IMG/VR virus record: IMGVR_UViG_3300038809_000011 | Location: 1 to 38,182 of that record | DNA length: 38,182 nt | Origin: a virus | Strand: one strand, 5' to 3' | Shown: positions 15,111 through 28,689 of the stretch, piece after piece | How the letters are laid out: each line of letters starts with the position of its first letter | Position numbering within the stretch: the first letter of the stretch is position 1 | Made by a program: the position numbers and the translations under genes | Notes under the pieces: model-generated | What the model was told of the DNA's origin: nothing | What the model saw: only the letters and a program-made list of their open reading frames with translations | Database searches by the model: none

Positions 15111-15827
15111 TTGGAAAGTAGAGCTTTAATTTTGAATGGAAAATCAACTGATGAATTTAGTTTTAAAACGCACGTTCTACAAAATGATGGTTTTAATTAT
15201 GCTAAAAAGAAAAATCAATTAATTGAAACGGAATATATCACAGGTGCAATTAAACGAACAATTAACGCTTGGCCGCCAATTCAAAAATCATATATCATCT
15301 TCTGCAATACACCAGATGTAAGAGATTTAAGAGAAGTGAAATTGTGGGCGAAAGATTACGGCACACTAACACCATCTGATGAGCCTGATGTGTTTTACGA
15401 AGTAATTGATGTTGAAATTGGTAATACACGTATTAACGAGATGAAGGCATTTGAACTTGAAATTACTTTTATAGTTCAACCTTTTGGTTTTGAAATAAAT
15501 CAACAAACGAAATCATATTCATCAGGTAACACGATTACAAATCATACAAACGCACCAATGTTCCCGAAAGTAACAGTCTACGGAACAAGTGCCGTTCAAA
15601 CGAATGTACAAATTGGTAGTCAAACTATCTACCTTAAAAATTTACAAAATGAAGTAACTATCGAAAGTAAGTATTTGATGCAGAACGTTTTTAACCAATA
15701 TAATGCACAGTCGAATAGTTTAATGCGTGGTGATTTCTTTGAGATACCTGCTGATACTGTAAGCACAATTACCTTAGGTAGTGGTATTGATCACATTGAT
15801 ATTTTGGAAAGGTGGTGTTGGTTATAA
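15111..15827 (+). CDS. Distal tail protein (Dit)
   Basis: 238 aa, immediately after the tape measure and before Tal. Confidence 0.7.
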   Translation: MESRALILNGKSTDEFSFKTHVLQNDGFNYAKKKNQLIETEYITGAIKRTINAWPPIQKSYIIFCNTPDVRDLREVKLWAKDYGTLTPSDEPDVFYEVIDVEIGNTRINEMKAFELEITFIVQPFGFEINQQTKSYSSGNTITNHTNAPMFPKVTVYGTSAVQTNVQIGSQTIYLKNLQNEVTIESKYLMQNVFNQYNAQSNSLMRGDFFEIPADTVSTITLGSGIDHIDILERWCWL

Positions 15828-18800
15828 TTTATTTATATGACAGTACATCCACAGATTTTACATATAATGGTGTGCCTTTATCACAAGCGCACGATGTAAA
15901 TGTAGAGTTTGAAATTAATGGTAGCTACTATGTTACTTTTAAACATCCATTAGATACAGAAGAAATTTACAAAACAATTCAAAAGGATATGATTGTAACT
16001 GTTAACACACCAGACGGTTTACAACCTTTTAGGATTATCGAAAGTGTAAATACAACTAAAAAAGTTGAGTTTGAAGCGTGGGCATTACTTTATGCTGATA
16101 TGCGAAATAAGTTGGTCAAGCCAATAACTATCAGGGGGTTGAGTGGACAAGCAGCAGTGAACACGTTCGTGAACAATCTATTGATCGACACACCATTCAC
16201 GTTTACGTCAAACATTACAGACGCGCACGATTATCATACGCAAGATACCGAGGAACGAAAAAACAACCCTAACCAACTATATAATGCGCTAGACGTGTTT
16301 AAAGATATTGTGACACGTTGGCAAGGTGAATTGGTTATCAACGGTTATGATGTTCGTGTAGTGAACAGATTAGGTAAAAATACGGGTGCGTTGCTGTACG
16401 AAAAGAAGAATATCTCAGACTTCACGGACGAAGAGTCTATTCAAGATATTGCTACCCGTTTATATGGAAAAGCTGAATGGACAGAACGTCCAGAAGGTTC
16501 TAACCAAGAAATTAAACATGAAATATCTGTAAAGGTAGAAAGTCCACTAATTAATGCTTATAGCGGTATTGTATTTGAAAAACAATACACTAATAACGAT
16601 ATCCGTACAGAGAAAGAAATGACAGATTGGTTGAATCTAAAATTCACCACTGACAATATTGACAAACCATCTCGGAATATCAAGGTTGGTACTAATATTG
16701 TAGATAACACTGTTATTAACATAGGCGATTCCCTAGTGCTTAAATACGTTAAACATGACGTAGATATGGAAATTAGAATGGTTGGTTACACCTATGATGG
16801 GTACGCTAATCGATATATCACTATTCAATTAGGCGACGCTAAACAATCTTATGTTGGTAATGTCCAAAATACTGTTAGGGAAATTGAAACAAACGTCAAT
16901 ACTGCCGTTAAACAAACTGTTAACCAAATTTTAAATGCTAATGGAGAACGTATGATTTATTCAGTTACCGAACCCGTGGGTAACTTTAAAAATGGTGATG
17001 TTTGGTTTGATCAACAAGGCGGTATGTATTTCTGGGATGAAGCAAGTGGAATGTGGATAGACCATCCATATAATCGAAACATGCGCGTTATGGAGGATGA
17101 AGTCAACACCGCAATTGAAACTGCTGAAACTGCTAAAGCATTAGCTGTAAGTGAAGCGGAACAAGCATTGGCTGATGCTAATAAGTATGCTGATGAGCAA
17201 GATGCATTAATTACGCAACAGGTTAGTAGTGACGTCAATACAGCAATTTCAACTGCTAATACCGCTAAGGCAACAGCAGAATCGTCTTATACTAACGCAG
17301 TTGCCGAAGCAACACGACTTGATGGTGTACAAAAAATAGCGTTTGATAATAGATTTGGTACCATACAAACTAGCGTAGATACATTTAATCAATCTGTTGC
17401 TGACGTTGATGCAAAAGCTGATGATGCATTGGTGAAAGCTGGTGCAAATGCTAACTTACTAACCACGCATCAAAATACATTAGACACAATCAACACCGTT
17501 ACACTTCCGAATATTTCATCAACAGCGGGAACTGCACTAGCTAATGCTAAAAGTGCTATGGATGAAGCCAAGTTAGCTGACGGTAAGATTGCAAATTATG
17601 TAACTACGAATGGTTTAGTAAATGGTACTACTGTTGATAGTAAGATTAATACTGCTACTGGGGAAATTAGTAAGAAGATTACGGCTGTTGAAGGTAAAAT
17701 ACCAAAGGAAATTGGCGGACAAAACTATGTTATAAATTCGAATTTTGCATCCAAATTTAGCAATTGGCACGTAAACAATAGCAGTTACATATCTTTAAAT
17801 GGCAAAGTGGTTAAAGCATCAGGTTTCGCTGGTGCTGGTATATTCGCTACAATCAACAACACTAGCGAAACCGAAACTTACACAATATCGGTTTATATTA
17901 AAGGTACAGGCTCAATCAGAATAGGTTTTGAGTCGGGTGTTAGAATTATCCCTATTCCAAGCAAAGATACATTTACTAGAATTAACTTTACAACGGTTAG
18001 AGGTGCGTCAAGCACATTCGTCCTTTATACCAACACTGTGGACACCGTTCTGGAATTTAAAAATATACAAATCGAGAAAGGCTCTATTTTAACAGACTGG
18101 AAACTTGCACCAGAAGATAACTATACAAAAGAAGAATTTAAAATCTTTGAAAGTACATACAATTCCGATGTGACAGGTATTAGGTCATCACTAACAGATT
18201 TATCTAACAAGAAACTAGATGGAACTACCTACACAAACTTCTATAATAATGACTACAAGATAACCGCCCAAGGTGTAACTGATGCTTGGACAGCAGTCAA
18301 CAAGATTGTTGACGCAAATGGCAACACAACAGAAACCTTTGCTAAAGCGGTATATGACAAAAATGCCACAAGACGAACAGAAGATTTTGATGAAGTTACA
18401 AAAGATTTAGTTAAAGAAGCGACATACACCGCTGGTATCAATGGTCTAAGTGGTAGTATTAGCACAGTTAGTGGACGAGTTGATAAATTAGTGGCTGGCG
18501 GTGGAGGTAGAAACTATGCCTTGAAGTCAAACGCCTATTACTACACAACTAACTATAAAGTGTCCGAATACGACTTAGCTAAGATACCAAAAGGCACTAA
18601 AATTAAGGTTAGCCTTTGGGGCGGGTTAGATTCAGGAGTTAGAACTTTTGGTGTTTACATCAACAATGGTAACGGAACTGCTTCTGGTAATTCTCAAATC
18701 ATCGAATTGACTAAATTAGACGGAGTGTTCGGTCAAGGAGTTGCTGTTCCTTTAGCAAAATGGACAGGCGAAGCGATCTTAAATGTAGACGCAAGTAAGA

Positions 18801-21244
18801 TTTTAATCTACGGGTTAGACAATAACAGTACATCACCAAAACGTATTGAATACGTTAAGGTTGAAACTGGCGAAACATTTACTGATTGGACGGTAGCTCC
18901 AGAGGACATGTTAGGAAAAGCAGACTTCCAAGTTTTCAAGACGACTTATGAAGCGAATGACCAAGCTATCAAAGCACGATTATTAGCTATTGATAGTAGC
19001 GAAGAAGGCTCAATTGTATATCGATTAAATGAAACAGAAAAGACGGCTAGTGGGAATACGACCACCATTTCTGACATTAAAACAAAACCTGGCGAACAAA
19101 TCACAGGCTATCAAACGATAAAAGAACGTAGCGAATTATACGAGCGTGTAATCGGAACAGATGAAGCGGGAATTAAAAGTAACATGGCACGAATAGTAAT
19201 GACTGACAGCCTGTTTAAAACAGAGGTTATTAAGAATGTACCATCATCTATTGGCGGTAGGAACTATGTACTAAAATCAAATGATTATTATTACACCAAC
19301 AATTACAAGGTCGCAGAGTACGATTTAAGCACCATTCCTAAAGGTACAAAGATTAAAATCAGTCTTTGGGGCGGGCTGTCTAGTTCAGTTAGAACTTTTG
19401 GCGTTTATGTAAATAATAGTAGTGGTGTAACGTCTGGAAATTCTCAAATTATTAAATTGGCTAAACTTGATGGTGTATTTGGTCAAGGGGTTAGTGTTCC
19501 ACTAGCTAAGTGGACAGCAGAAGCCACATTGAATGTTGATGCAAAGAAAATTTTAATCTATGGGTTAGACAATAACAGTACATCACCAAAACGTATTGAA
19601 TACGTCCAAATAGAAACTGGTGACTACTACACCGACTGGACTGCTGCACCCGAAGATAAAGCCAACATGTCAGCTATTACACAGTTGGAAAATAGCATTA
19701 GTTTGAAAGTATCAAACGCTGAATTATTAAGTGCGATTAACTTACAAGCTGGCGGTGTTCTTATCACAAGCGGTACGAACAAGTTGAATATCACACCAGA
19801 AACAACATTTATCCAAGATGCCACAATTAAGTCAGCTATGATTGATACCATTGACGTTAAAAAAATAACAGGTATCGAAGCAGATTTCACTACAATGATT
19901 ACTAAGGGTTTAACCGCTGACGTGATTACATCTACTATGATTAAAGCTGATGATGCTATGTTTACTAAATTGTTCACAAACAGCCTTGCGACAACTAAAC
20001 TGGCAGCACAAGGAGCTTGGATTACAAATGCTAATATTGTTTCGTTAGATGCAAGTAAGATTACTGCTGGAACTATTGCAACTGCTAGATTAAATGCTAC
20101 ACAGATTGTAACTACTGGATTAAGTGCTAATGTGGTTAAATCAGAGCATATTTTGGGCAGTACGGCTTTGATAGATAAGATATTCTCCGATACCGCATAC
20201 ATTACACAGCTTACAAGTAAGACAGCGTTCATTAGTTCGATACAAGCTATTGACATTAGTGCAAGTAAGATTACAAGTGGTACATTAGATGCAAGTAAGA
20301 TTACAGTAAGTAATTTAGATGCTAGTAGTATTACGGCAAACCAAGCAAACTTAATCAAAGCAGGGCTAACAAGTTCTTCTGGAGGTACTCTAGCGCTAAG
20401 TGGAGACCAATTCTTAAGTACCGCAAGTGATGGCTCACAGACATATATACAAAATGGTGTTACTGGTACTAGAAACCCACAAGGTGCAACTATTGGACAG
20501 ATTGGTTATGCTTATGAATCTTCAAGTCCATGGTACTCTATGCAAGTTTCACACGGTTCTCACTTCCAGATTCGTATGAGTCGTGGTGATGGGCAACTTA
20601 ACAAACAAGCCTTCTACATTATCTCTGGTGGTACTGAGTCTTATCTAAACACAGATAACATCTACTTAAACCCAGCTTCAAGTGGACGTGTTCGGGTGCA
20701 AGGTGCTATGACAGTTGATGGAGTCTTACGTACAGAGGGTACTGTGCTTGTACGTTCTAAGTTAGAATACTTGAATGGTGGTTTTATCGAGTCGCAATCA
20801 GCTAACTCAAACATGCTAATCAATGCTTCTAACAAGTTGGTTATCTATACAAACGGCTCAAACGCCTTAGAATTTGATGCTAACAACGCAGTATTTAGAC
20901 GTAAGATTTCCGAGAACTCTGATGCTAGGTTGAAAACTAATATCGTAGATATGCCGATTGATAGCCTAGATGCAATCAGAAACATGGAGATTAAGAAGTT
21001 TGACTACCTAGATGGTCGTACAAACTATTACGGTATCATTGCCCAACAAGCACAACAATACCTACCAGAGCTAATTAATACTGATAGTGAAGGGTACTTA
21101 ATGGTAGACAAGTCAGCAATGACTTACGTTAATATGCACGCTATTCAACAGTTAGATAACAAGGTAGATGACGAAGTAACCAAATTAAAAGCTAAGATAA
21201 CAACATTAGAAAAAGAACTAGCGCTATTAAAAGGAGCAGCATAA
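15812..21244 (+). CDS. Tail-associated lysin-like / receptor-binding fibre protein (Tal N-terminus, coiled coil, three carbohydrate-binding-like modules, repeat-rich shaft, C-terminal S74 chaperone)
   Basis: 1810 aa. The N-terminus (IYLYD ...) resembles prophage tail endopeptidase/Tal proteins. The three modules each end in TDW-x-APED. SDARLKTNI (from 20918) matches the autoproteolytic chaperone motif. The start is ambiguous (GTG 15812 or TTG 15818). Confidence 0.85.
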   Translation: MVLVIIYLYDSTSTDFTYNGVPLSQAHDVNVEFEINGSYYVTFKHPLDTEEIYKTIQKDMIVTVNTPDGLQPFRIIESVNTTKKVEFEAWALLYADMRNKLVKPITIRGLSGQAAVNTFVNNLLIDTPFTFTSNITDAHDYHTQDTEERKNNPNQLYNALDVFKDIVTRWQGELVINGYDVRVVNRLGKNTGALLYEKKNISDFTDEESIQDIATRLYGKAEWTERPEGSNQEIKHEISVKVESPLINAYSGIVFEKQYTNNDIRTEKEMTDWLNLKFTTDNIDKPSRNIKVGTNIVDNTVINIGDSLVLKYVKHDVDMEIRMVGYTYDGYANRYITIQLGDAKQSYVGNVQNTVREIETNVNTAVKQTVNQILNANGERMIYSVTEPVGNFKNGDVWFDQQGGMYFWDEASGMWIDHPYNRNMRVMEDEVNTAIETAETAKALAVSEAEQALADANKYADEQDALITQQVSSDVNTAISTANTAKATAESSYTNAVAEATRLDGVQKIAFDNRFGTIQTSVDTFNQSVADVDAKADDALVKAGANANLLTTHQNTLDTINTVTLPNISSTAGTALANAKSAMDEAKLADGKIANYVTTNGLVNGTTVDSKINTATGEISKKITAVEGKIPKEIGGQNYVINSNFASKFSNWHVNNSSYISLNGKVVKASGFAGAGIFATINNTSETETYTISVYIKGTGSIRIGFESGVRIIPIPSKDTFTRINFTTVRGASSTFVLYTNTVDTVLEFKNIQIEKGSILTDWKLAPEDNYTKEEFKIFESTYNSDVTGIRSSLTDLSNKKLDGTTYTNFYNNDYKITAQGVTDAWTAVNKIVDANGNTTETFAKAVYDKNATRRTEDFDEVTKDLVKEATYTAGINGLSGSISTVSGRVDKLVAGGGGRNYALKSNAYYYTTNYKVSEYDLAKIPKGTKIKVSLWGGLDSGVRTFGVYINNGNGTASGNSQIIELTKLDGVFGQGVAVPLAKWTGEAILNVDASKILIYGLDNNSTSPKRIEYVKVETGETFTDWTVAPEDMLGKADFQVFKTTYEANDQAIKARLLAIDSSEEGSIVYRLNETEKTASGNTTTISDIKTKPGEQITGYQTIKERSELYERVIGTDEAGIKSNMARIVMTDSLFKTEVIKNVPSSIGGRNYVLKSNDYYYTNNYKVAEYDLSTIPKGTKIKISLWGGLSSSVRTFGVYVNNSSGVTSGNSQIIKLAKLDGVFGQGVSVPLAKWTAEATLNVDAKKILIYGLDNNSTSPKRIEYVQIETGDYYTDWTAAPEDKANMSAITQLENSISLKVSNAELLSAINLQAGGVLITSGTNKLNITPETTFIQDATIKSAMIDTIDVKKITGIEADFTTMITKGLTADVITSTMIKADDAMFTKLFTNSLATTKLAAQGAWITNANIVSLDASKITAGTIATARLNATQIVTTGLSANVVKSEHILGSTALIDKIFSDTAYITQLTSKTAFISSIQAIDISASKITSGTLDASKITVSNLDASSITANQANLIKAGLTSSSGGTLALSGDQFLSTASDGSQTYIQNGVTGTRNPQGATIGQIGYAYESSSPWYSMQVSHGSHFQIRMSRGDGQLNKQAFYIISGGTESYLNTDNIYLNPASSGRVRVQGAMTVDGVLRTEGTVLVRSKLEYLNGGFIESQSANSNMLINASNKLVIYTNGSNALEFDANNAVFRRKISENSDARLKTNIVDMPIDSLDAIRNMEIKKFDYLDGRTNYYGIIAQQAQQYLPELINTDSEGYLMVDKSAMTYVNMHAIQQLDNKVDDEVTKLKAKITTLEKELALLKGAA
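17714..18118 (+). repeat. Diverged first copy of the TDW-x-APED module in the fibre gene
   Basis: GGQNYVINS ... ILTDWKLAPED has the same boundaries as the two downstream modules, but the interior has diverged. Confidence 0.5.
18503..18907 (+). repeat. Module repeat copy 1 (paralogous to 19253-19657)
   Basis: GGRNYALKSNAYYYTTNYKVSEYDLAKIPKGTKIKVSLWGG ... TDWTVAPED. Confidence 0.9.
19253..19657 (+). repeat. Module repeat copy 2 (exactly 750 nt downstream of copy 1)
   Basis: GGRNYVLKSNDYYYTNNYKVAEYDLSTIPKGTKIKISLWGG ... TDWTAAPED. A 44-nt identical block lies at 18812-18855 and 19562-19605. Confidence 0.9.
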
Positions 21245-22425: not shown

Positions 22426-22697
22426 TGGACATTTTAAATTATGTCGTTCAAGAAGGGCTGGTAATGATACCAGTCCTTTTTATTATTGGTGAGATTATTA
22501 AAGGTACGGAAACGATTGAAAATAAGTATATCCCAGTTATTTTATTGGTGTTATCTTTGGCATTAACACCTTTCGTTTTAGGCGGATACACAGCAGATAA
22601 TATCGTGCAGTCTGTTTTGGTTGCTGGTGTAACTGTATTTGGTAATGAGTTGATTAAGCAATCAAGTAAAGGAGAAAAAATAAATGGTAGTAACTAA
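22425..22697 (+). CDS. Holin
   Basis: 90 aa. Two or three hydrophobic segments and a charged C-terminus (KQSSKGEK). It lies directly upstream of, and overlaps, the endolysin. Confidence 0.75.
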   Translation: MDILNYVVQEGLVMIPVLFIIGEIIKGTETIENKYIPVILLVLSLALTPFVLGGYTADNIVQSVLVAGVTVFGNELIKQSSKGEKINGSN

Positions 22698-23835
22698 AAT
22701 CCAAAAACACTTAACGCTAGTAAATAGCGGCACTAAGGGAACTAACACCCCTGAATGGATTATCTTCCATTTTGTAGGTGCAGCAGGTCAAGCAAAAGAT
22801 AATGCTAACTATTTCCGTTCAGTGTATCGTGGCGCTTCCGCTCATTATTTTGTTGACCCTAAAAACATTATTCAAGTTGTCGAAGACACGACACCTGCTT
22901 GGCATATTGGAGATGGTTACAATTCAGGCAAAGGTACATACAATGGCTATGTTAAAGCCAAAGGCGCCACCAACACTAATGCGATTGGTATTGAGCTTTG
23001 CCAAGATACGTCAACAGGTTCTGATGTATGGCATTGGGATTTTGAAAAGGAAACGGTTGATAATGCTGAATGGCTAATCAATCAATTGCAAGTAAAATAC
23101 GGTATTGACGATGATCACATTATTCGTCACTATGATGCTTCAGGCAAATTGTGTCCTGGTAACTGGCAATATGACAACTGGGCTAAATGGACTGCTTTCA
23201 AGAAACGTTTAGCAGGAGTACCACAATCAACATCTACTGCAGTAGCAGTTTCAGATGGTAAGCCATCAGTTACAGGCATGTACCTTGTGAAAGCAGGCGA
23301 CACATTAGCTAAAATTGCGAAAGCAAATAAGGTGACTGTTAACGATTTAGTGAAATGGAATGACTTAGACAATCCAAACTTAATCTTCCCAGAAACGAAA
23401 CTATTCATTAAAGCACCAACGGTTAAAGGAACTACTGATATTGATGCCTTAGCTCGTAAAACAATTAATGGCGAATTTGGTTCTGGCGAAGCCCGTAAGA
23501 AAGCATTAGGCACTAATTATGACAAGGTACAAGCTCGAGTGAATGAAATCTTGTTAGGCACTTCAGCAACTGTAACTAAGACTACTAAGCAATTAGCCCA
23601 AGAAGTTTTAGATGGTAAACATGGTTTAGGAGATGCACGTAAGAAATCATTAGGTTCTCGATATGATGAAGTGCAAGCAGAAGTTAACAAGATGCTAGCT
23701 GGCAAATCAGTAGATACGCTTGCTAGAGAAGTTTTGGACGGTAAGTGGGGTAATGGTGTAGAACGTAAGAATAGATTAGTGAAAGCTGGGTATGACTACA
23801 ATGCGGTGCAAGCTAGAGTTAATCAGTTGATGTAA
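22684..23835 (+). CDS. Endolysin: N-acetylmuramoyl-L-alanine amidase (Amidase_2/PGRP-like) + LysM + three CW_7 (Cpl-7-like) repeats
   Basis: Amidase pattern: FHF ... SAHYFVD ... AWHIGDG ... NAIGIELC ... RHYDASGKLCPG. LysM lies at about 23281-23411 (YLVKAGDTLAKIAKANKVTVNDLVKWN). Three ~40-aa repeats of G-x-G-x-x-R-K-x-x-LG-x-x-Y-x-x-VQ-x-x-VN lie at 23437-23832. Confidence 0.85.
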   Translation: MVVTKIQKHLTLVNSGTKGTNTPEWIIFHFVGAAGQAKDNANYFRSVYRGASAHYFVDPKNIIQVVEDTTPAWHIGDGYNSGKGTYNGYVKAKGATNTNAIGIELCQDTSTGSDVWHWDFEKETVDNAEWLINQLQVKYGIDDDHIIRHYDASGKLCPGNWQYDNWAKWTAFKKRLAGVPQSTSTAVAVSDGKPSVTGMYLVKAGDTLAKIAKANKVTVNDLVKWNDLDNPNLIFPETKLFIKAPTVKGTTDIDALARKTINGEFGSGEARKKALGTNYDKVQARVNEILLGTSATVTKTTKQLAQEVLDGKHGLGDARKKSLGSRYDEVQAEVNKMLAGKSVDTLAREVLDGKWGNGVERKNRLVKAGYDYNAVQARVNQLM

Positions 23836-23876
23836 TTGTATGACAATCATGCGTTAAAATTTAAAAAATAAAGCAC

Positions 23877-24010
23877 AAAAGGACAGCTCGTTATGAGTTG
23901 CCCTCTTTTTTTGTTGGATCTTATACTTCAATGTTTTGTGTTTTATATCTTGCCTCTCTTAAAATGTAGCAAAAAATCGCAAGCGTCTTGTTTTTCAGTA
24001 TGTTTTTATT
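23877..24010. repeat. Left copy of the ~135-nt imperfect direct repeat flanking the moron cassette
   Basis: Aligns by eye with 25584-25721. Both start AAAAGG + terminator hairpin + T-run + GTTG, and share TTTTATATC(T/G)TGCCTCTC (17 of 18 identical). Confidence 0.75.
23881..23912 (+). terminator. Intrinsic terminator after the endolysin (imperfect stem)
   Basis: GGACAGCTC pairs with GAGTTGCCC (one mismatch, one G-U), with a 5-nt loop, followed by TCTTTTTTT. Confidence 0.6.
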
Positions 24011-24088
24011 TTCAATAAAAGCATGAGATTTTTATTATCTGTTATTATATAATAAATTAAAAATCTAATAGTTGGGAATGTGGTTTAA

Positions 24089-25465
24089 TTGGTCTATAGA
24101 AATAAGAATTTTGAAAATGTATCAAAGTATAACGATATTATAAGTAATTTCTATGAAACAATAAAATCTTTAGATGCATATTTAAAAAATATTCAAAAAG
24201 GTATGCGAGTTGTAAATATAATTGATAGAGGTGGAGATGTTAGGCCGTTAGAATTACTTTTAAACTTGAGAGTAGGATATTCTGATGGAATAATTTCTTT
24301 AGAAGAATATGAAAAAAGGTTGAACAAAATAAAAGAAGATTATGATAGGGCAGAAATGATAGATGAAGCGTTAGTTGAAGACGAAAAGGGAATAACCTCA
24401 AATAATCCTTATTTTGCAAGACTTATACACATTCTTAACACTAGTAATAATAATACAAAGAATGAATTATTAAAAATCCAAGAAATGACATTCGTTAATA
24501 TATTGAGCATTTTTGAAAGTAGTATAAGTTCCCTACTAGTTCTTTATTTTTCTAAAATTCACCAATCGACGAACGATATAGATAAGAGAAAAATTCAATA
24601 TTCTGACATTTCTTTTGTAGATTCGAAAGATGAATTGAAAGAATATTTTGTTTCTGATTTTATCAAAAGTAAAATGTATGAAAAATTTGAGAGTTGGATT
24701 GAATTTGCTTTAGATAAATTAACAAAAATGGATAAGAATACCTTGAAAAAGGAGTTTGGACAAGATATTGAAGAGATATCTGTAGCATATATATATAGAA
24801 ACCTTGTACTACATAATCAAGGAATTGTAAATTACGAATCTTTAAAGTCCGGAAAAATTAACAGCTATAACAACGGCGATAAATTAGAAATTGATGAAAA
24901 ATATATTTATCACATCAAAAATATACTGTATAAGCTATTCTCTATAATTTCTCTACAATGTATTAAAAAATTTAAAAATAATGATAAATTTAGTGAACAA
25001 TTTGCACTAAATAATATTAATTCTATCGCAGTTGAAATAATGAATGAGAATGATTATTTAGGATCGGCCATAATTTTTGAGCAACTTAATATCTATTGTA
25101 ATAAGGATTTAGATGATAATTATGAATTTAGAAATTTTAAAAGAATTGTATATTATAATAGCCTACTGAATAGCTTATTATTGAATGATGAAAGTAAAGA
25201 AGATCTGTTAAAAGATTATGATAAATTTCTTGAAATTAATAAAGAATCTTTTGAATCTGGAGATTTGTTTGCTGAAGGTATTTTTAAATATAAATCATCC
25301 AATGAATTTGACATAAATTATTTGGATACCATTATGGATGAATTTTGTGATTCTAGAAGTGCAAAAATTAATGTTCTCCTGGATTGGCCAATGTTTAAAT
25401 TAATAGAGAATGATGTCGATTTTATTGAATATAAAGAAAAAATGTTGTATTATAGAGATGTTTAA
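24089..25465 (+). CDS. AT-rich moron-encoded 458-aa protein with HEPN-like R-x4-H motif (candidate abortive-infection/defence RNase)
   Basis: Long ORF in a very AT-rich segment. YRNLVLHNQG has R at 24797-24799 and H at 24812-24814, preceded by helical segments (ILSIFESSISSLLVLYF ... WIEFALDKL). The C-terminal ~200 aa look helical-repeat-like. The start is uncertain (TTG 24089 or ATG 24203). Confidence 0.5.
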   Translation: MVYRNKNFENVSKYNDIISNFYETIKSLDAYLKNIQKGMRVVNIIDRGGDVRPLELLLNLRVGYSDGIISLEEYEKRLNKIKEDYDRAEMIDEALVEDEKGITSNNPYFARLIHILNTSNNNTKNELLKIQEMTFVNILSIFESSISSLLVLYFSKIHQSTNDIDKRKIQYSDISFVDSKDELKEYFVSDFIKSKMYEKFESWIEFALDKLTKMDKNTLKKEFGQDIEEISVAYIYRNLVLHNQGIVNYESLKSGKINSYNNGDKLEIDEKYIYHIKNILYKLFSIISLQCIKKFKNNDKFSEQFALNNINSIAVEIMNENDYLGSAIIFEQLNIYCNKDLDDNYEFRNFKRIVYYNSLLNSLLLNDESKEDLLKDYDKFLEINKESFESGDLFAEGIFKYKSSNEFDINYLDTIMDEFCDSRSAKINVLLDWPMFKLIENDVDFIEYKEKMLYYRDV

Positions 25466-25494
25466 GCCTAAGAACTTTGATAGGAGGAATATTT

Positions 25495-25554
25495 ATGACT
25501 TCAACTGAAGATAAAAATATTAACGAGGTTCGAGATGTTATCATAAAAAAATAA
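25495..25554 (+). CDS. 19-codon micro-ORF (MTSTEDKNINEVRDVIIKK)
   Basis: ATG lies 6 nt after the strong SD TAGGAGGA (25481-25488), 29 nt downstream of the moron ORF and upstream of a terminator. Confidence 0.35.
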   Translation: MTSTEDKNINEVRDVIIKK

Positions 25555-25587
25555 AATTTTGCCTGTAGAGTAACTCTTAAGGTAAAA

Positions 25588-25621
25588 GGGTAACTCGTAA
25601 ATGAGTTATCCTATTTTTTTT
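25588..25621 (+). terminator. Intrinsic terminator after the moron and micro-ORF
   Basis: GGGTAACTC pairs with GAGTTATCC (one G-U), with a 6-nt loop, followed by TATTTTTTTT. Confidence 0.75.
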
Positions 25622-25692
25622 GTTGATTTTTATTATCCAATCGTTTATATTTTATATCGTGCCTCTCCCAAAGTGTGGCACACAACTTCAAG

Positions 25693-25718
25693 CACCCTGT
25701 TTTGCAGGGTGTTTTTTT
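25693..25718 (+). terminator. Intrinsic terminator
   Basis: CACCCTG pairs perfectly with CAGGGTG, with a 5-nt loop, followed by seven T. Confidence 0.8.
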
Positions 25719-25723
25719 ATTGA

Positions 25724-25753
25724 GCCCTCACTTAATTGTGGGGGGCTTTTTTT
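25724..25753 (+). terminator. Intrinsic terminator
   Basis: GCCCTCAC pairs with GTGGGGGGC (one bulge, one G-U), with a 6-nt loop, followed by seven T. Confidence 0.65.
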
Positions 25754-25809
25754 ATTTTGCCTATTTTTCGGCAATTATCTTAATTGGTGTGAATTTTGGA
25801 AAACCTTTC

Positions 25810-25840
25810 GAGTAGCTTTTGAGTAGCTTTTGAGTAACTG
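25810..25840. repeat. Tandem 11-nt repeat GAGTAGCTTTT x2 plus partial GAGTAACTG
   Basis: Read directly from the sequence. It abuts the left TGTTGACC pair. Confidence 0.8.
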
Positions 25841-26055
25841 TTGACCCAATGTTGACCAAACGTGTCTAAAACCTTGATATATCAGCACCTATTACCCCGG
25901 CCACCGGTATTATAAGCTTAAAATAGAACATAATATAAATTTTAAGCAACTAGCTTAAACGTTGATATAACAGCGTTTAGGCTTTTTTTATTGCTTTAAA
26001 GGTCGTCAAACAATATCAAAGAATACAAACTTCTGTTGACCATTTGTTGACCAAA
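25839..26055. other. Candidate attP: two pairs of TGTTGACC arm-type repeats flanking a repeat-rich core region
   Basis: TGTTGACC occurs at 25839, 25850, 26034 and 26045, all in the same orientation with 11-nt phasing within each pair. Between the pairs lie TTGATATATCAGC (25874-25886) and TTGATATAACAGC (25962-25974), the inverted repeat GCTTAAAAT/ATTTTAAGC (25916-25924/25939-25947), and a G+C island CCCCGGCCACCGG (25895-25907). The region lies directly downstream of int. Confidence 0.5.
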
Positions 26056-26056
26056 A

Positions 26057-27223
26057 TTACAACTTGTCTGCTGCTTTAAATGATTCTTCAATTAGTCGAT
26101 TCGTTTCTTTCGATTCCTTCTGTTCAACTGATCTAACTACATGACTGTACTTGTTTAAAGTCGTACTAATATCATTGTGTCCAGCACGTCTACTAATGTA
26201 GGTATATGCCATTTTATGATTTAGTAACCAGGTAATGTGTGTATGCCTTAAGTTATGATTGGTGAAGCGTGGAATATGGATGCCTGCTTCTGCTAAGTAC
26301 CTAGTCAGACTTTTATTAATCGTGTTGTTACTATATAACTCACTGTCTGCATTAATGAAGACCAGGTTTCGATTCACATAACCATTCTTCACTTGCCAAG
26401 TACGCAACATTTTAAGATATTTTAGTGTGTAACTATCAACTGTTATTTCTCTATCTGAAGATACATTCTTGGTAGGTGCGAAATCCTTATTAATGAAACT
26501 CCAAGTCTTTTTGATGCTGACGACACCGTTCGTCCAATCAATCGCATCCCAAGTCATTCCTGCAGTTTCAGAAAAGCGTGTACCTAAAGATAAGGAAGTC
26601 AAATTAAAGACTGCCTGCACCTGCATGTCGTCCACATTAATATGACTGATTAAAACTGCACGTAACTTATTAATTTGGTCATCATCTAAAGCCATAGTAT
26701 TTTCTTCGTTTCTTCTGATTAAACCAACTGATTTTACATCTTCAGCAGGGTTGAAACGTATCTTACCTAACTTGACTGCTTTAGATAGGGCAGACTTGCA
26801 ATGTCTGTTTACTTTATCAACCGTTTCCTTGTAATGCTCTTTGGCTACCTTATTTCCACGTTCATCAATGCCGTATGCGTACCAGTTGATGAACTGTTGG
26901 TATTTTACTTCAGTTAGATTTTCAAGCGTTACACGGCCAAAATATTCGCTTACAAGCTGTATTGAACGCTCATAATGTGATTGGGTTTTATCAGTAATCG
27001 TATTCTTTTTATAAGTGACATACCATTCTTGAAAGTAATCAGCAAAAGTGATTTTCCCACCATGAACATCTGTGCCATGATCCAATCGGTATTCTAATTC
27101 ATTCGCCCACACATTCGCTTCACTTTTGGTTTGAAAAGTTTCTGAAAATTGTTGCAGCTCACCGTCTATCCGTCTGCTGACGACTGCACGGTATTTTTTA
27201 CCACGTTTTGAAATACTAGCCAT
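26057..27223 (-). CDS. int: Tyrosine recombinase-type phage integrase
   Basis: 388 aa. The N-terminal SAM-like/arm-binding region begins ISKRGKKYRAVV. The C-terminal catalytic pattern is TRFSE ... HNLRHTHITWL ... GHNDISTTLNKYSHV (R ... H-x-x-R ... H ... Y). Confidence 0.9.
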   Translation of the reverse strand: MASISKRGKKYRAVVSRRIDGELQQFSETFQTKSEANVWANELEYRLDHGTDVHGGKITFADYFQEWYVTYKKNTITDKTQSHYERSIQLVSEYFGRVTLENLTEVKYQQFINWYAYGIDERGNKVAKEHYKETVDKVNRHCKSALSKAVKLGKIRFNPAEDVKSVGLIRRNEENTMALDDDQINKLRAVLISHINVDDMQVQAVFNLTSLSLGTRFSETAGMTWDAIDWTNGVVSIKKTWSFINKDFAPTKNVSSDREITVDSYTLKYLKMLRTWQVKNGYVNRNLVFINADSELYSNNTINKSLTRYLAEAGIHIPRFTNHNLRHTHITWLLNHKMAYTYISRRAGHNDISTTLNKYSHVVRSVEQKESKETNRLIEESFKAADKL

Positions 27224-27340: not shown

Positions 27341-28099
27341 CTAATAAAGTGCTATACGTTCTACATAAATCATAGGTATTTCTAATTCAGCACCCATTAC
27401 AGTTTCGTAGTTTGTAGTACCTAAAGAAGTGCCTGTAAAAGTTACATAGTCATCGTCAATTATTCTTCCGTCAGGAGTATCCTCTTCATAGCCAATTAAA
27501 ACCACTGTGTCATAATTATCATATAGTGCTACACGATGTTGAACTTCACCCTCACCTTGCATAGTTTGAATTATTGTACCTTCTAAAGTTACCAATTCAC
27601 CCATATAATCATCGGGGTATCTCATCAAATCGTCATAAGTCAAATCAGTTCTCGCATTATCCAAGTCACTTTGTAACTGAGCTTCAATACTCTCAGATTG
27701 AGCCTTAGATTCACTTTGATATTTTGCAATAGATTCAGACTCAGCTATGCTTTCTGATTCAGCTTTGGACTCACTTGCAGCTATTGATTCACTTTTAGCT
27801 TTTGCGATAGATTCTGATTCAGCAATACTTTCAGATTCTGTCATACTTGAAGATTCTTCAACTTTTGATTCTACTGATGTCGAACTACTGCTCTCATCTG
27901 CTTCAACAGATTCAACAACTTCTGAGCTACTACTTGATGCTGACGAAGTGTCATTTTGCGTACCGTTCGGAGTAATTAAATTGATAATTGAAATAGCGAC
28001 TAAAGCTGACAACCATACTTTCCAATTTTTATACCATTTTTTATCTGTATCTTTTACCCAATTTACATATTTCGACCAAACTTCTCTTAACTTTTCCAT
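27341..28099 (-). CDS. Single-pass membrane protein with Ser/Glu-rich SESIA tandem repeats and a C-terminal beta-rich domain (superinfection-exclusion candidate)
   Basis: 252 aa. TM segment VWLSALVAISIINLI. Repeats SESIAESESIAKAKSESIAASESKAESESIAESESIAKYQSESKAQSESIE. The C-terminal domain resembles that of the upstream neighbour. GGAGG SD upstream. Confidence 0.6.
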   Translation of the reverse strand: MEKLREVWSKYVNWVKDTDKKWYKNWKVWLSALVAISIINLITPNGTQNDTSSASSSSSEVVESVEADESSSSTSVESKVEESSSMTESESIAESESIAKAKSESIAASESKAESESIAESESIAKYQSESKAQSESIEAQLQSDLDNARTDLTYDDLMRYPDDYMGELVTLEGTIIQTMQGEGEVQHRVALYDNYDTVVLIGYEEDTPDGRIIDDDYVTFTGTSLGTTNYETVMGAELEIPMIYVERIALY

Positions 28100-28185: not shown

Positions 28186-28689
28186 TTATTCTTCAATATA
28201 AGAACTTTGAAGAATAGGCATCGACATATCGTTATTCCCTTTATAAATACCATAGATGGTAATTTCATCCCCTACCTTCAATTCTGCATCTAAGTCAAAA
28301 ATTTGGACCTCGTACATGCCGTAACCATCTCCACTTTTTGTAGAAAATAATATGGTAGGGAAAGCAGAACCATCGTCGATAATACTTTCGACTGTTCCTT
28401 TTGCAAATAGTTTCGTTCCTTCTTCATATTGATCAGCATTTGCGGTTACAAAGTCAACTTCGACAGCTTCTTTTTTTAATTTATTATCTAATTCTTCTTG
28501 TGAAGGTTCAGATTCACTCTCTAATGATGACTGATTACTTTCTTGTTCAAATTCAGTAGGTCCAGCAATGCTACCTAAAATATATAGAAATGCAAACACT
28601 AGAATTGGTATAAAGATTATCCCAATAACTATTTTCTGCCAAAGTGGCCTTTTAGGTGCTTCAAACGTTTCTCTTTTCTTTCTCCCCAT
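28186..28689 (-). CDS. Single-pass membrane protein with C-terminal beta-rich domain (superinfection-exclusion candidate)
   Basis: 167 aa. N-terminal basic stretch, TM segment IVIGIIFIPILVFAFLYILGSI, an acidic linker and a ~100-aa domain. Confidence 0.6.
   Translation of the reverse strand: MGRKKRETFEAPKRPLWQKIVIGIIFIPILVFAFLYILGSIAGPTEFEQESNQSSLESESEPSQEELDNKLKKEAVEVDFVTANADQYEEGTKLFAKGTVESIIDDGSAFPTILFSTKSGDGYGMYEVQIFDLDAELKVGDEITIYGIYKGNNDMSMPILQSSYIEE

Follow-up and report, generated by a model that had tools for sequence, protein, structure and literature searches.

A prophage moron cassette encoding a candidate HEPN RNase with a TPR-like domain and a conserved micropeptide partner

The window analysed here is the 38,182-nucleotide (nt) stretch of virus DNA held as IMG/VR record IMGVR_UViG_3300038809_000011, positions 1 to 38,182, read on one strand from 5' to 3'. 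A sharp low-GC island lies between its lysin gene (22684-23835) and its integrase gene (26057-27223), which is divergently oriented. The long gene of this island (24089-25465, forward strand, TTG start) encodes a protein of 458 amino acids (aa) with a predicted HEPN RNase domain and a TPR-like C-terminus, and we call it the HEPN-TPR gene; its GC content is 24.7%, versus 37.3% in the 5 kb upstream. A second open reading frame (ORF) on the same strand, a micro-ORF of only 19 aa (25495-25554; MTSTEDKNINEVRDVIIKK), begins with an ATG 30 nt past the stop codon of the first and has homologous ORFs in related loci, which mark it as a conserved partner gene. The first-pass annotation, made from the letters alone, had taken the long ORF for a new single-gene abortive-infection or defence RNase. 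The ORF and the segment YRNLVLHNQG within it, with the Arg codon (R237) at 24797-24799 and the His codon (H242) at 24812-24814, are exactly as it described them. The single-gene part of the claim does not stand, since a conserved co-directional micropeptide gene follows and makes the unit a two-gene operon. The micro-ORF, the borders of the cassette that holds both genes and the 107-nt direct repeat flanking it were absent from that account.

The predicted catalytic motif, R237-N-L-V-L-H242 (24797-24814, forward strand), is by itself not beyond chance: among 20,000 shuffles of the 458-aa protein, R-x4-H arose in 11%, R-x4-6-H in 31% and R[NDH]x3H in 2.2%. It becomes significant because it is conserved across 87 homologues. 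These relatives were collected by an exhaustive HMMER search of 1.84 billion cluster representatives (E < 1e-3, with 13 at E < 1e-10), and their alignment, at ~15-27% identity, underlies the residue counts that follow. Most are 430-480 aa long, and the common core spans residues ~130-300. H242 is found in 87 of 87 homologues and R237 in 86; the position after the Arg (238) holds N in 72, H in 13 and D in 2, the window protein having N, and both N243 and G245 are kept in 80. E143 (codon 24515-24517), a conserved acidic residue in the first HEPN helix, is E in 82 and D in 3, and position 147 is S or A, versus the K or R of the E-x3-[KR] form. The family consensus around the motif reads ExFxRRNLxVHNNGxVNxxYL. 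A survey of HEPN domains gives as hallmarks the R-x4-6-H motif, a polar residue (mostly N, D or H) after the Arg, and another acidic residue that is conserved, usually in the form E-x3-[KR] (PMC3710099). Judged from the alignment, the R-x4-H is a genuine family-wide HEPN signature, and the near-invariance of its Arg and His in homologues bears out the signature that the first-pass annotation had proposed. At the start of the gene, residues 1-12 offer no alternative in-frame start, and similarity to the homologues starts at residue 13.

A word-indexed search of 5.8 billion proteins matched only the 458-aa protein itself, the window protein alone had no match among PDB sequences, and PHROGs and NCBIfam hold no model for the family. 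No relative was found by tblastn with the window protein and its relative P0003 against 50,697 GenBank phage records, no match by megablast of the cassette against the same records, and no relatives by scans of species-representative genomes and of IMG/VR; a metagenome scan recovered only close copies of the relatives P0004 and P0005. The closest NCBI relatives come from Staphylococcus saprophyticus, S. xylosus, S. hominis and S. epidermidis. The first-pass annotation had proposed a PADLOC check for a known defence system, and this came back empty: the window protein has 0 matches in PADLOC-DB v2, and what family members and the consensus match there are HEPN portions of other systems, weakly and short of significance (RTasHEPN at 6e-4, CARF_HEPN and Csx1).

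The central domain (about residues 125-295; 24461-24973, forward strand) can be placed among HEPN families through its relatives. In a scan of 40 members, four weakly matched Pfam PF18735 (HEPN_RiboL-PSP; 191 model positions, curated gathering cutoff 28.4 bits), and a profile search of an annotated collection recovered members carrying a PF18735 annotation at E = 1e-59 to 1e-92, with P0088-P0091 scoring E = 1e-85 to 1e-92 against the family profile. On rescanning with PF18735, P0089 (33.7 bits) and P0091 (28.8 bits) passed the cutoff, aligning to model positions 6-189 of 191; the family consensus of the central domain passed it as well (31.8 bits, E = 1.6e-7, nearly the whole model covered), and P0088, P0090 and P0092 reached 24-26 bits. 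The window protein has no match to PF18735 even at E <= 10. It does align directly with P0089 at E = 3e-5 over residues 138-242, through the RNLxxH site. Since no Pfam threshold is reached by the window protein itself, its membership is one of transitive homology, and these profile comparisons support placing the central domain in the RiboL-PSP-HEPN clade, one of several candidate families that had been listed at the outset.

The RiboL-PSP-HEPN clade is bacterial, keeps R-x4-6-H, occurs fused to endoRNase L-PSP or together with ParB, and is distantly related to AbiD/AbiF (PMC3710099). The present family shares with it a homologous central domain, an R-x4-H motif with N after the Arg, and a bacterial distribution. 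It differs in what surrounds that domain: no endoRNase L-PSP domain was detected in the 40 members and no ParB in any gene context examined, and in place of the L-PSP fusion or ParB operon there are an N-terminal helical region, a TPR-like C-terminus and a micropeptide partner. In the literature searched we found no experimental study of any PF18735 protein, the name turning up in a single unrelated paper. The family is therefore new in part only: its HEPN core falls within an existing, uncharacterised Pfam family, and its architecture and partner are undescribed.

With the 87-sequence alignment as input, AlphaFold2 returned a confident, all-helical model in three parts (pLDDT, the predicted local distance difference test score, 90.0; predicted template modelling score, pTM, 0.90); the single-sequence prediction reached a pLDDT of 33.8. 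In the model the N-terminal part (residues 1-105) has helices at 6-42, 52-65, 71-84 and 88-94 and a beta-hairpin at 95-104, and the N-terminal helical region as a whole (residues 1-124; 24089-24460, forward strand) belongs to no recognisable family, its consensus having no Pfam match above threshold. A central bundle follows at residues 107-295, with the R-x4-H at the end of the 216-243 helix, in agreement with the helical segment that had been predicted ahead of the motif. The C-terminal domain (residues 300-458; 24986-25462, forward strand) is modelled as paired helices over 300-455, and in this region the family profile matches the TPR repeats of kinesin light chain at E = 1.2e-4. The top whole-chain Foldseek matches were all TPR or solenoid proteins (SNAP, LGN, Rap, NprR, FKBP51), none of them significant (E > 0.5), and Pfam TPR models had no match in the 40 members; for these reasons we call the C-terminus TPR-like. 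A helical-repeat C-terminus that might act as a sensor had been suggested from the letters, and the model contains such a repeat of ~160 residues, which could serve in that role.

The micro-ORF carries the stronger translation signals of the pair. Its Shine-Dalgarno sequence, AGGAGG (25482-25487, forward strand), lies 7 nt before the ATG and pairs with the anti-Shine-Dalgarno at -12.3 kcal/mol, versus -7.0 for the HEPN-TPR gene. The pairing is stronger for the small ORF in 9 of 10 loci, and the small ORF always starts with ATG, the large gene starting with TTG in the window, L014 and L027. Among the eight closest-clade loci with DNA, seven have a comparable ORF of 18-20 aa that starts between -7 and +30 nt from the stop codon of the large gene. 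Besides the window peptide, these are MPKNELENVEIKDTIKIN at L014 (beside P0003), MDKELMEVEEVKDTIKLK at L018 (P0004), MQTIKEIKEVEVNDTIVVEK at L022 (P0005), MIPLSQVEEKKLNDEITKK at L023 (P0007), MLPKRVQESKTIDKKISK at L027 (P0002) and MQDVNSKEINEVKDTIKISR at L030 (P0009). Every one of them has an Asp at position 13-14, 5-6 residues from the C-terminus, within the motif [EK]-[VIL]-[KRN]-D-x-I. Per locus, 1.3% of shuffles produce an ATG with a Shine-Dalgarno sequence and an ORF of 16-24 codons in this position; by strict automated criteria the micro-ORF is present in 6 of the 8 loci, giving P = 1.5e-10. The mean pairwise similarity of the peptides also exceeded that of all 2,000 composition-preserving shuffles (z = 9.7).

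Conserved residues of the peptide are written in varied synonymous codons from locus to locus (V as GTT, GTA or GTG; T as ACG, ACA or ACT; I as ATC, ATA or ATT; D as GAT or GAC), and the large HEPN-TPR proteins of the same loci are only 25-30% identical. Because of these two observations together, we attribute the conservation to selection on the peptide and not to leftover DNA similarity. The peptides are hydrophilic, with a grand average of hydropathy (GRAVY) of -0.3 to -1.1 and no hydrophobic run longer than 3 residues, and hence lack a signal peptide.

In a sister clade (P0088, P0089 and P0091) the place of the micro-ORF is taken by another conserved small ORF, of 58-59 aa and with a CxxC...HxC pattern. 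It stands directly after the HEPN-TPR gene at L003 (11340-11519), L011 (1862-2039), L012 (1481-1657) and L013 (3533-3709); at L011 its ATG is 40 nt past the stop at 1823, and in the gene-caller prediction it begins at 1890 (49 aa). This ORF has no significant Pfam match, and its CxxC...HxC pattern is zinc-ribbon-like.

Both genes of the window lie in a mobile moron cassette of 1,946 nt (23869-25814, forward strand, as are the features that follow) that is 99.3% identical by blastn to part of another phage contig, L002. L002 encodes an identical 458-aa protein, yet its tail genes and its lysin are different, and 23869-25814 is all that blastn finds the two to have in common. The 14 differences are confined to the edges, with 100% identity throughout 23891-25608, and a comparison whose coding part is invariant says nothing on selection. 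At the left edge, a terminator-like hairpin after the lysin gene (23884-23900) aligns with the hairpin (25587-25612) of an intrinsic terminator-like element whose T-run extends to 25622 (25587-25622) and which closes the two-gene operon. The operon is bracketed by the 107-nt direct repeats (copy 1, 23906-24012; copy 2, 25615-25721; 74% identical), with a terminator-like hairpin before each copy; their 18-nt core occurs twice in the window versus 0 expected. Two more terminator-like hairpins, at 25690-25714 and 25725-25744, lie near the right edge (25690-25744). Within the AT-rich leader of the HEPN-TPR gene, a consensus scan picked out a putative promoter (24009-24053) made up of TTTTCA-18-TATTAT (24009-24038) and a TATAAT (24048-53).

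Duplication of the upstream terminator around the cassette is also seen at L014 (7889-7918 and 9416-9445, 87%), at L029 (1090-1132 and 2826-2868, 74%) and more weakly at L023 (6806-6845 and 8384-8423). Because the upstream (lysin) terminator recurs downstream of the cassette, insertion or exchange by recombination at terminators is suggested. Between the cassette and the integrase gene we also observed CTGTTGACC(N3)TGTTGACCAAA boxes at 25838-25860 and 26033-26055 (also 25827-25849), which are probably integrase arm-type binding sites framing attP. A tandem of the 11-nt GAGTAGCTTTT (~25811-25832) falls exactly at the right junction of the cassette.

The first-pass annotation had called the gene product a moron protein, and its position after the lysin is conserved in relatives. 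They follow directly on the lysin in six different lysin architectures: Amidase_2+LysM+CW_7 in the window, Amidase_2+SPOR at L002, Amidase_2+CHAP+SH3b at L014, CHAP+Amidase_2+SH3_5 at L017, CHAP+GH25+LysM at L027 and Amidase_3+LysM+PG_binding_1 at L029. In S. xylosus, P0004 has been retained in what remains of a prophage, where its neighbours are an SH3b fragment of a lysin and an integrase that is truncated. The accessory end of a satellite-like island, similar to the phage-inducible chromosomal islands (L023, 1-8293), holds P0007, in the order PriCT primase, VapE, small terminase, small ORFs, HEPN-TPR gene and micro-ORF. P0017 belongs to a Paenibacillus phage region, P0088 is a lone chromosomal gene of a gut bacterium, and all members are GC-poor relative to their own flanks. 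A few kb from the S. xylosus remnant lies a staphylokinase-family gene (L018-L021, 13575-14094); staphylokinase is a classic prophage conversion gene.

Taking these observations together, we consider it somewhat better than an even call that the cassette is an abortive-infection or toxin module expressed in the lysogen, in which a HEPN RNase is under TPR-like control and the micropeptide is its neutraliser or ligand. One of these two roles toward the HEPN protein is probable for the micropeptide; RNase activity, toxicity, lysogen expression and anti-phage function are what context and precedent would lead us to infer. The cassette would then be an operon of two genes, complete in itself, that has a promoter-like region and a terminator of its own and rides as a moron at the prophage end beside the attachment site. 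Its first gene would contribute the N-terminal helical region, the HEPN RNase domain with an intact R-N-x3-H and the TPR-like domain, and its second a cytoplasmic, hydrophilic peptide of 19 residues. In a lysogen little RNase would be produced (TTG start, weak Shine-Dalgarno), and what there is would be held inactive, with the micropeptide made in excess (ATG start, AGGAGG) and acting as neutraliser or ligand, most plausibly in the TPR-like domain. An infecting phage might lift the inhibition, either because a short-lived peptide is lost when host expression is shut off or because a phage protein displaces it. The freed HEPN domains could then dimerise and form the active site, so that RNA would be cleaved and the infection aborted.

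A bolder version of this reading, which we hold only tentatively and would not bet on, is that the peptide is an antitoxin or allosteric ligand acting through the HEPN RNase's own TPR-like domain, for which the sister clade has swapped in its zinc-ribbon-like protein of 58 aa. If true, toxin or abortive-infection modules gated by a peptide would make up a new class, and the trigger would be set by the smallest proteinaceous antitoxin known or by a phage protein displacing it.

Several observations weigh against the module as we propose it. NCBI labels each named relative a 'hypothetical protein', and that the peptide binds the TPR-like domain is purely something we infer. The window protein has no match in Pfam, PADLOC, PHROGs or NCBIfam, and it departs from the family at three conserved sites, V232 (E in 79 of 87), Y236 (R in 71) and S251 (Y in 82). 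Whole-chain Foldseek against PDB and BFVD found no HEPN structure and nothing at E <= 1e-3, TPR-like repeats dominating the ranking, and profile and consensus searches of PDB sequences with the HEPN domain found no similar HEPN chain. The first-pass annotation would have been refuted by the lack of a HEPN-like fold in structure prediction; the model is confidently all-helical over 107-295, and because the repeats dominate the whole-chain comparison we do not count the missing HEPN match as a refutation. The window peptide resembles the other six only moderately (z = 3.0; 30 of 5,000 shuffles reach the observed value). The small ORF is absent at L026 and, at L029, no more than a degenerate version of 14 aa, so the micro-ORF is not universal in the family and the unit is usually, not always, a two-gene operon. 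The putative promoter at 24009-24053 is a consensus match only. Finally, a toxin-first order, with the antitoxin downstream, is atypical, being the less common arrangement in type II toxin-antitoxin systems.

The main alternative, which we regard as unlikely, is that the large protein is self-sufficient: an autoinhibited sensor-effector of abortive infection, switched on by a phage structural protein at its TPR-like or N-terminal domain, with a micro-ORF that merely tunes expression or mRNA stability or is unrelated. TPR-type domains are common phage-protein sensors, as in the Avs/STAND systems, and the proteins at L026 and L029 keep the full architecture and the catalytic residues without a micro-ORF. 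Precedent exists in two solo HEPN proteins activated by phage tail proteins. HepS, of the Salmonella prophage Gifsy-1, is an abortive-infection protein that is inactive at rest until activated by a phage tail protein; it forms a compact tetramer, cuts tRNA in the anticodon loop and has no partner gene (PMC13043305). Both it and the protein described here are HEPN proteins in a prophage accessory slot, and the present family differs in its TPR-like domain and its conserved small partner. Tha is likewise a prophage solo HEPN abortive-infection RNase, triggered by tail proteins (PMC11087260). Tha-1 and Ith-1 of S. aureus prophages (PMC11087260) share with our system a prophage HEPN protein, RNxxxH, an unrecognisable N-terminal part and, on our proposed reading, the logic of abortive infection and a small cognate inhibitor gene, and the closest relatives of the window protein are found in staphylococcal prophages as Tha-1 is. 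Tha, however, is a protein of 301 aa with a C-terminal HEPN domain, encoded between int and cI with an antisense-overlapping inhibitor (PMC11087260), unlike the window protein of 458 aa with its central HEPN domain, TPR-like C-terminus, post-lysin position and co-directional 19-aa ORF downstream. We rejected homology to Tha, hhalign giving a probability of 0.2% against Tha-1 (80alpha gp03) and tblastn against the phage records giving no match. A solo protein also leaves the small genes unexplained: the micropeptide is maintained at the amino-acid level through synonymous turnover beside large proteins that have diverged to 25-30% identity, a second clade independently retains a different small ORF at the same place, and in 9 of 10 loci it is the small ORF whose translation signals are stronger.

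The small neighbour invites comparison with AbiF of a C. difficile prophage, a toxic HEPN protein neutralised by an adjacent RNA antitoxin, RCd22 (PMC12373285), AbiD/AbiF being a distant sister of the RiboL-PSP-HEPN clade (PMC3710099). Both are prophage-borne HEPN proteins with a small adjacent element, here a putative partner, and they differ in that the AbiF element is a structured RNA upstream and ours a translated micropeptide ORF downstream. Abi_2 (PF07751) had no match at E <= 0.1 in the 40 members, no Rfam family lies in the cassette, and abiF in particular has no match at E <= 1 across 23700-26200; on the strength of this Rfam scan we dropped an RNA antitoxin of the type III or AbiF-like kind as the leading idea. 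Less likely than a solo sensor-effector is an addiction module that stabilises the prophage or satellite by post-segregational killing and has no dedicated anti-phage function. Two genes, a putative RNase toxin and a small partner whose signals predict high translation, would suit such a module, as would the elements that carry it: prophages, the remnant of one and a satellite-like island. We nevertheless find it improbable, since the cassette persists in the decayed S. xylosus remnant, where little is left to stabilise, since P0088 is a lone chromosomal gene, and since genes placed behind a lysin or small terminase occupy a classic accessory or defence hotspot. Addiction and anti-phage roles are not mutually exclusive.

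A role that serves the phage itself appears more improbable still: a catalytically altered HEPN protein could act in late RNA processing or host mRNA turnover, or as an RNA- or nucleotide-binding regulator. The gene does lie downstream of, and in the same orientation as, the late lysis genes, and the window protein has lost the three family-conserved residues near the active site noted above (V232, Y236, S251). On the other side, the catalytic motif has kept its R, N and H, a terminator-like hairpin parts the gene from the lysin and a promoter-like AT-rich leader stands ahead of it, and the cassette is independent, exchanged between unrelated phages and found outside phages as well. Because no relative occurs among the 50,697 GenBank phage records, the HEPN-TPR gene is also likely dispensable for phage growth. 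Least credible to us is peptide signalling of the RRNPP kind, in which the peptide would be exported, accumulate with cell or lysogen density, be re-imported and bind the TPR-like domain, placing the RNase under quorum control. In gene layout alone the likeness to Rap-Phr, NprR-NprX and AimR-AimP is close, a TPR-type protein of ~450 aa, the size of a receptor, with a short co-directional ORF at its 3' end in Firmicutes phages being the signature of such pairs, and Rap and NprR are among the non-significant Foldseek matches. The structural similarity is not significant (Foldseek E-values of 1.7-3.8 for RRNPP receptors), the effector is a HEPN domain and not a helix-turn-helix (HTH) or Rap-type phosphatase domain, the peptides have neither an export signal nor an SHP/ComS-like hydrophobic core, and the literature searched contains no RRNPP-HEPN connection. 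With a hydrophilic peptide, we judged a secreted pheromone unlikely.

The rest of the window appears to be a complete temperate siphovirus genome of ~38 kb, running from terminase to replication module with the integrase mid-genome. It has no megablast match among the 50,697 GenBank phages and no tRNA, and its integrase and lysin share no more than 37% identity with proteins of Listeria, Lactobacillus, Terrisporobacter or Streptococcus phages. A tail protein of 1,810 aa (15812-21244) contains an internal duplication of ~180 residues, with GGRNYALKSNAYYYTTNYKVSEYDL... appearing again as GGRNYVLKSNDYYYTNNYKVAEYDL..., which suggests a doubled receptor-binding or carbohydrate-binding module. Two neighbours of the integrase gene, located on the lysogeny strand (27341-28099 and 28186-28689, reverse strand), encode proteins with an N-terminal segment resembling a membrane anchor, a Ser/Glu-rich linker (SESIAESESIA repeats) and a small C-terminal domain, for which no Pfam match was recorded; both are candidate surface-exposed proteins of lysogenic conversion or superinfection exclusion.

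The demonstration that solo HEPN RNases of prophages act in abortive infection is recent, dating from 2024 for Tha and 2026 for HepS, and each has a different way of silencing a dangerous RNase. The family described here would add a third architecture, a HEPN domain joined to a TPR-like domain and accompanied by a conserved partner of 18-20 aa, and it raises the testable question of whether a micropeptide can gate a HEPN nuclease. It may also offer a first functional handle on Pfam PF18735. The conserved micro-ORF is a component that gene callers overlook, and the near-identical cassette in two unrelated phages, together with the duplicated terminators that flank it, illustrates the exchange of morons in the post-lysin slot. 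Further, the relatives point to unannotated defence candidates in the prophages of coagulase-negative staphylococci.

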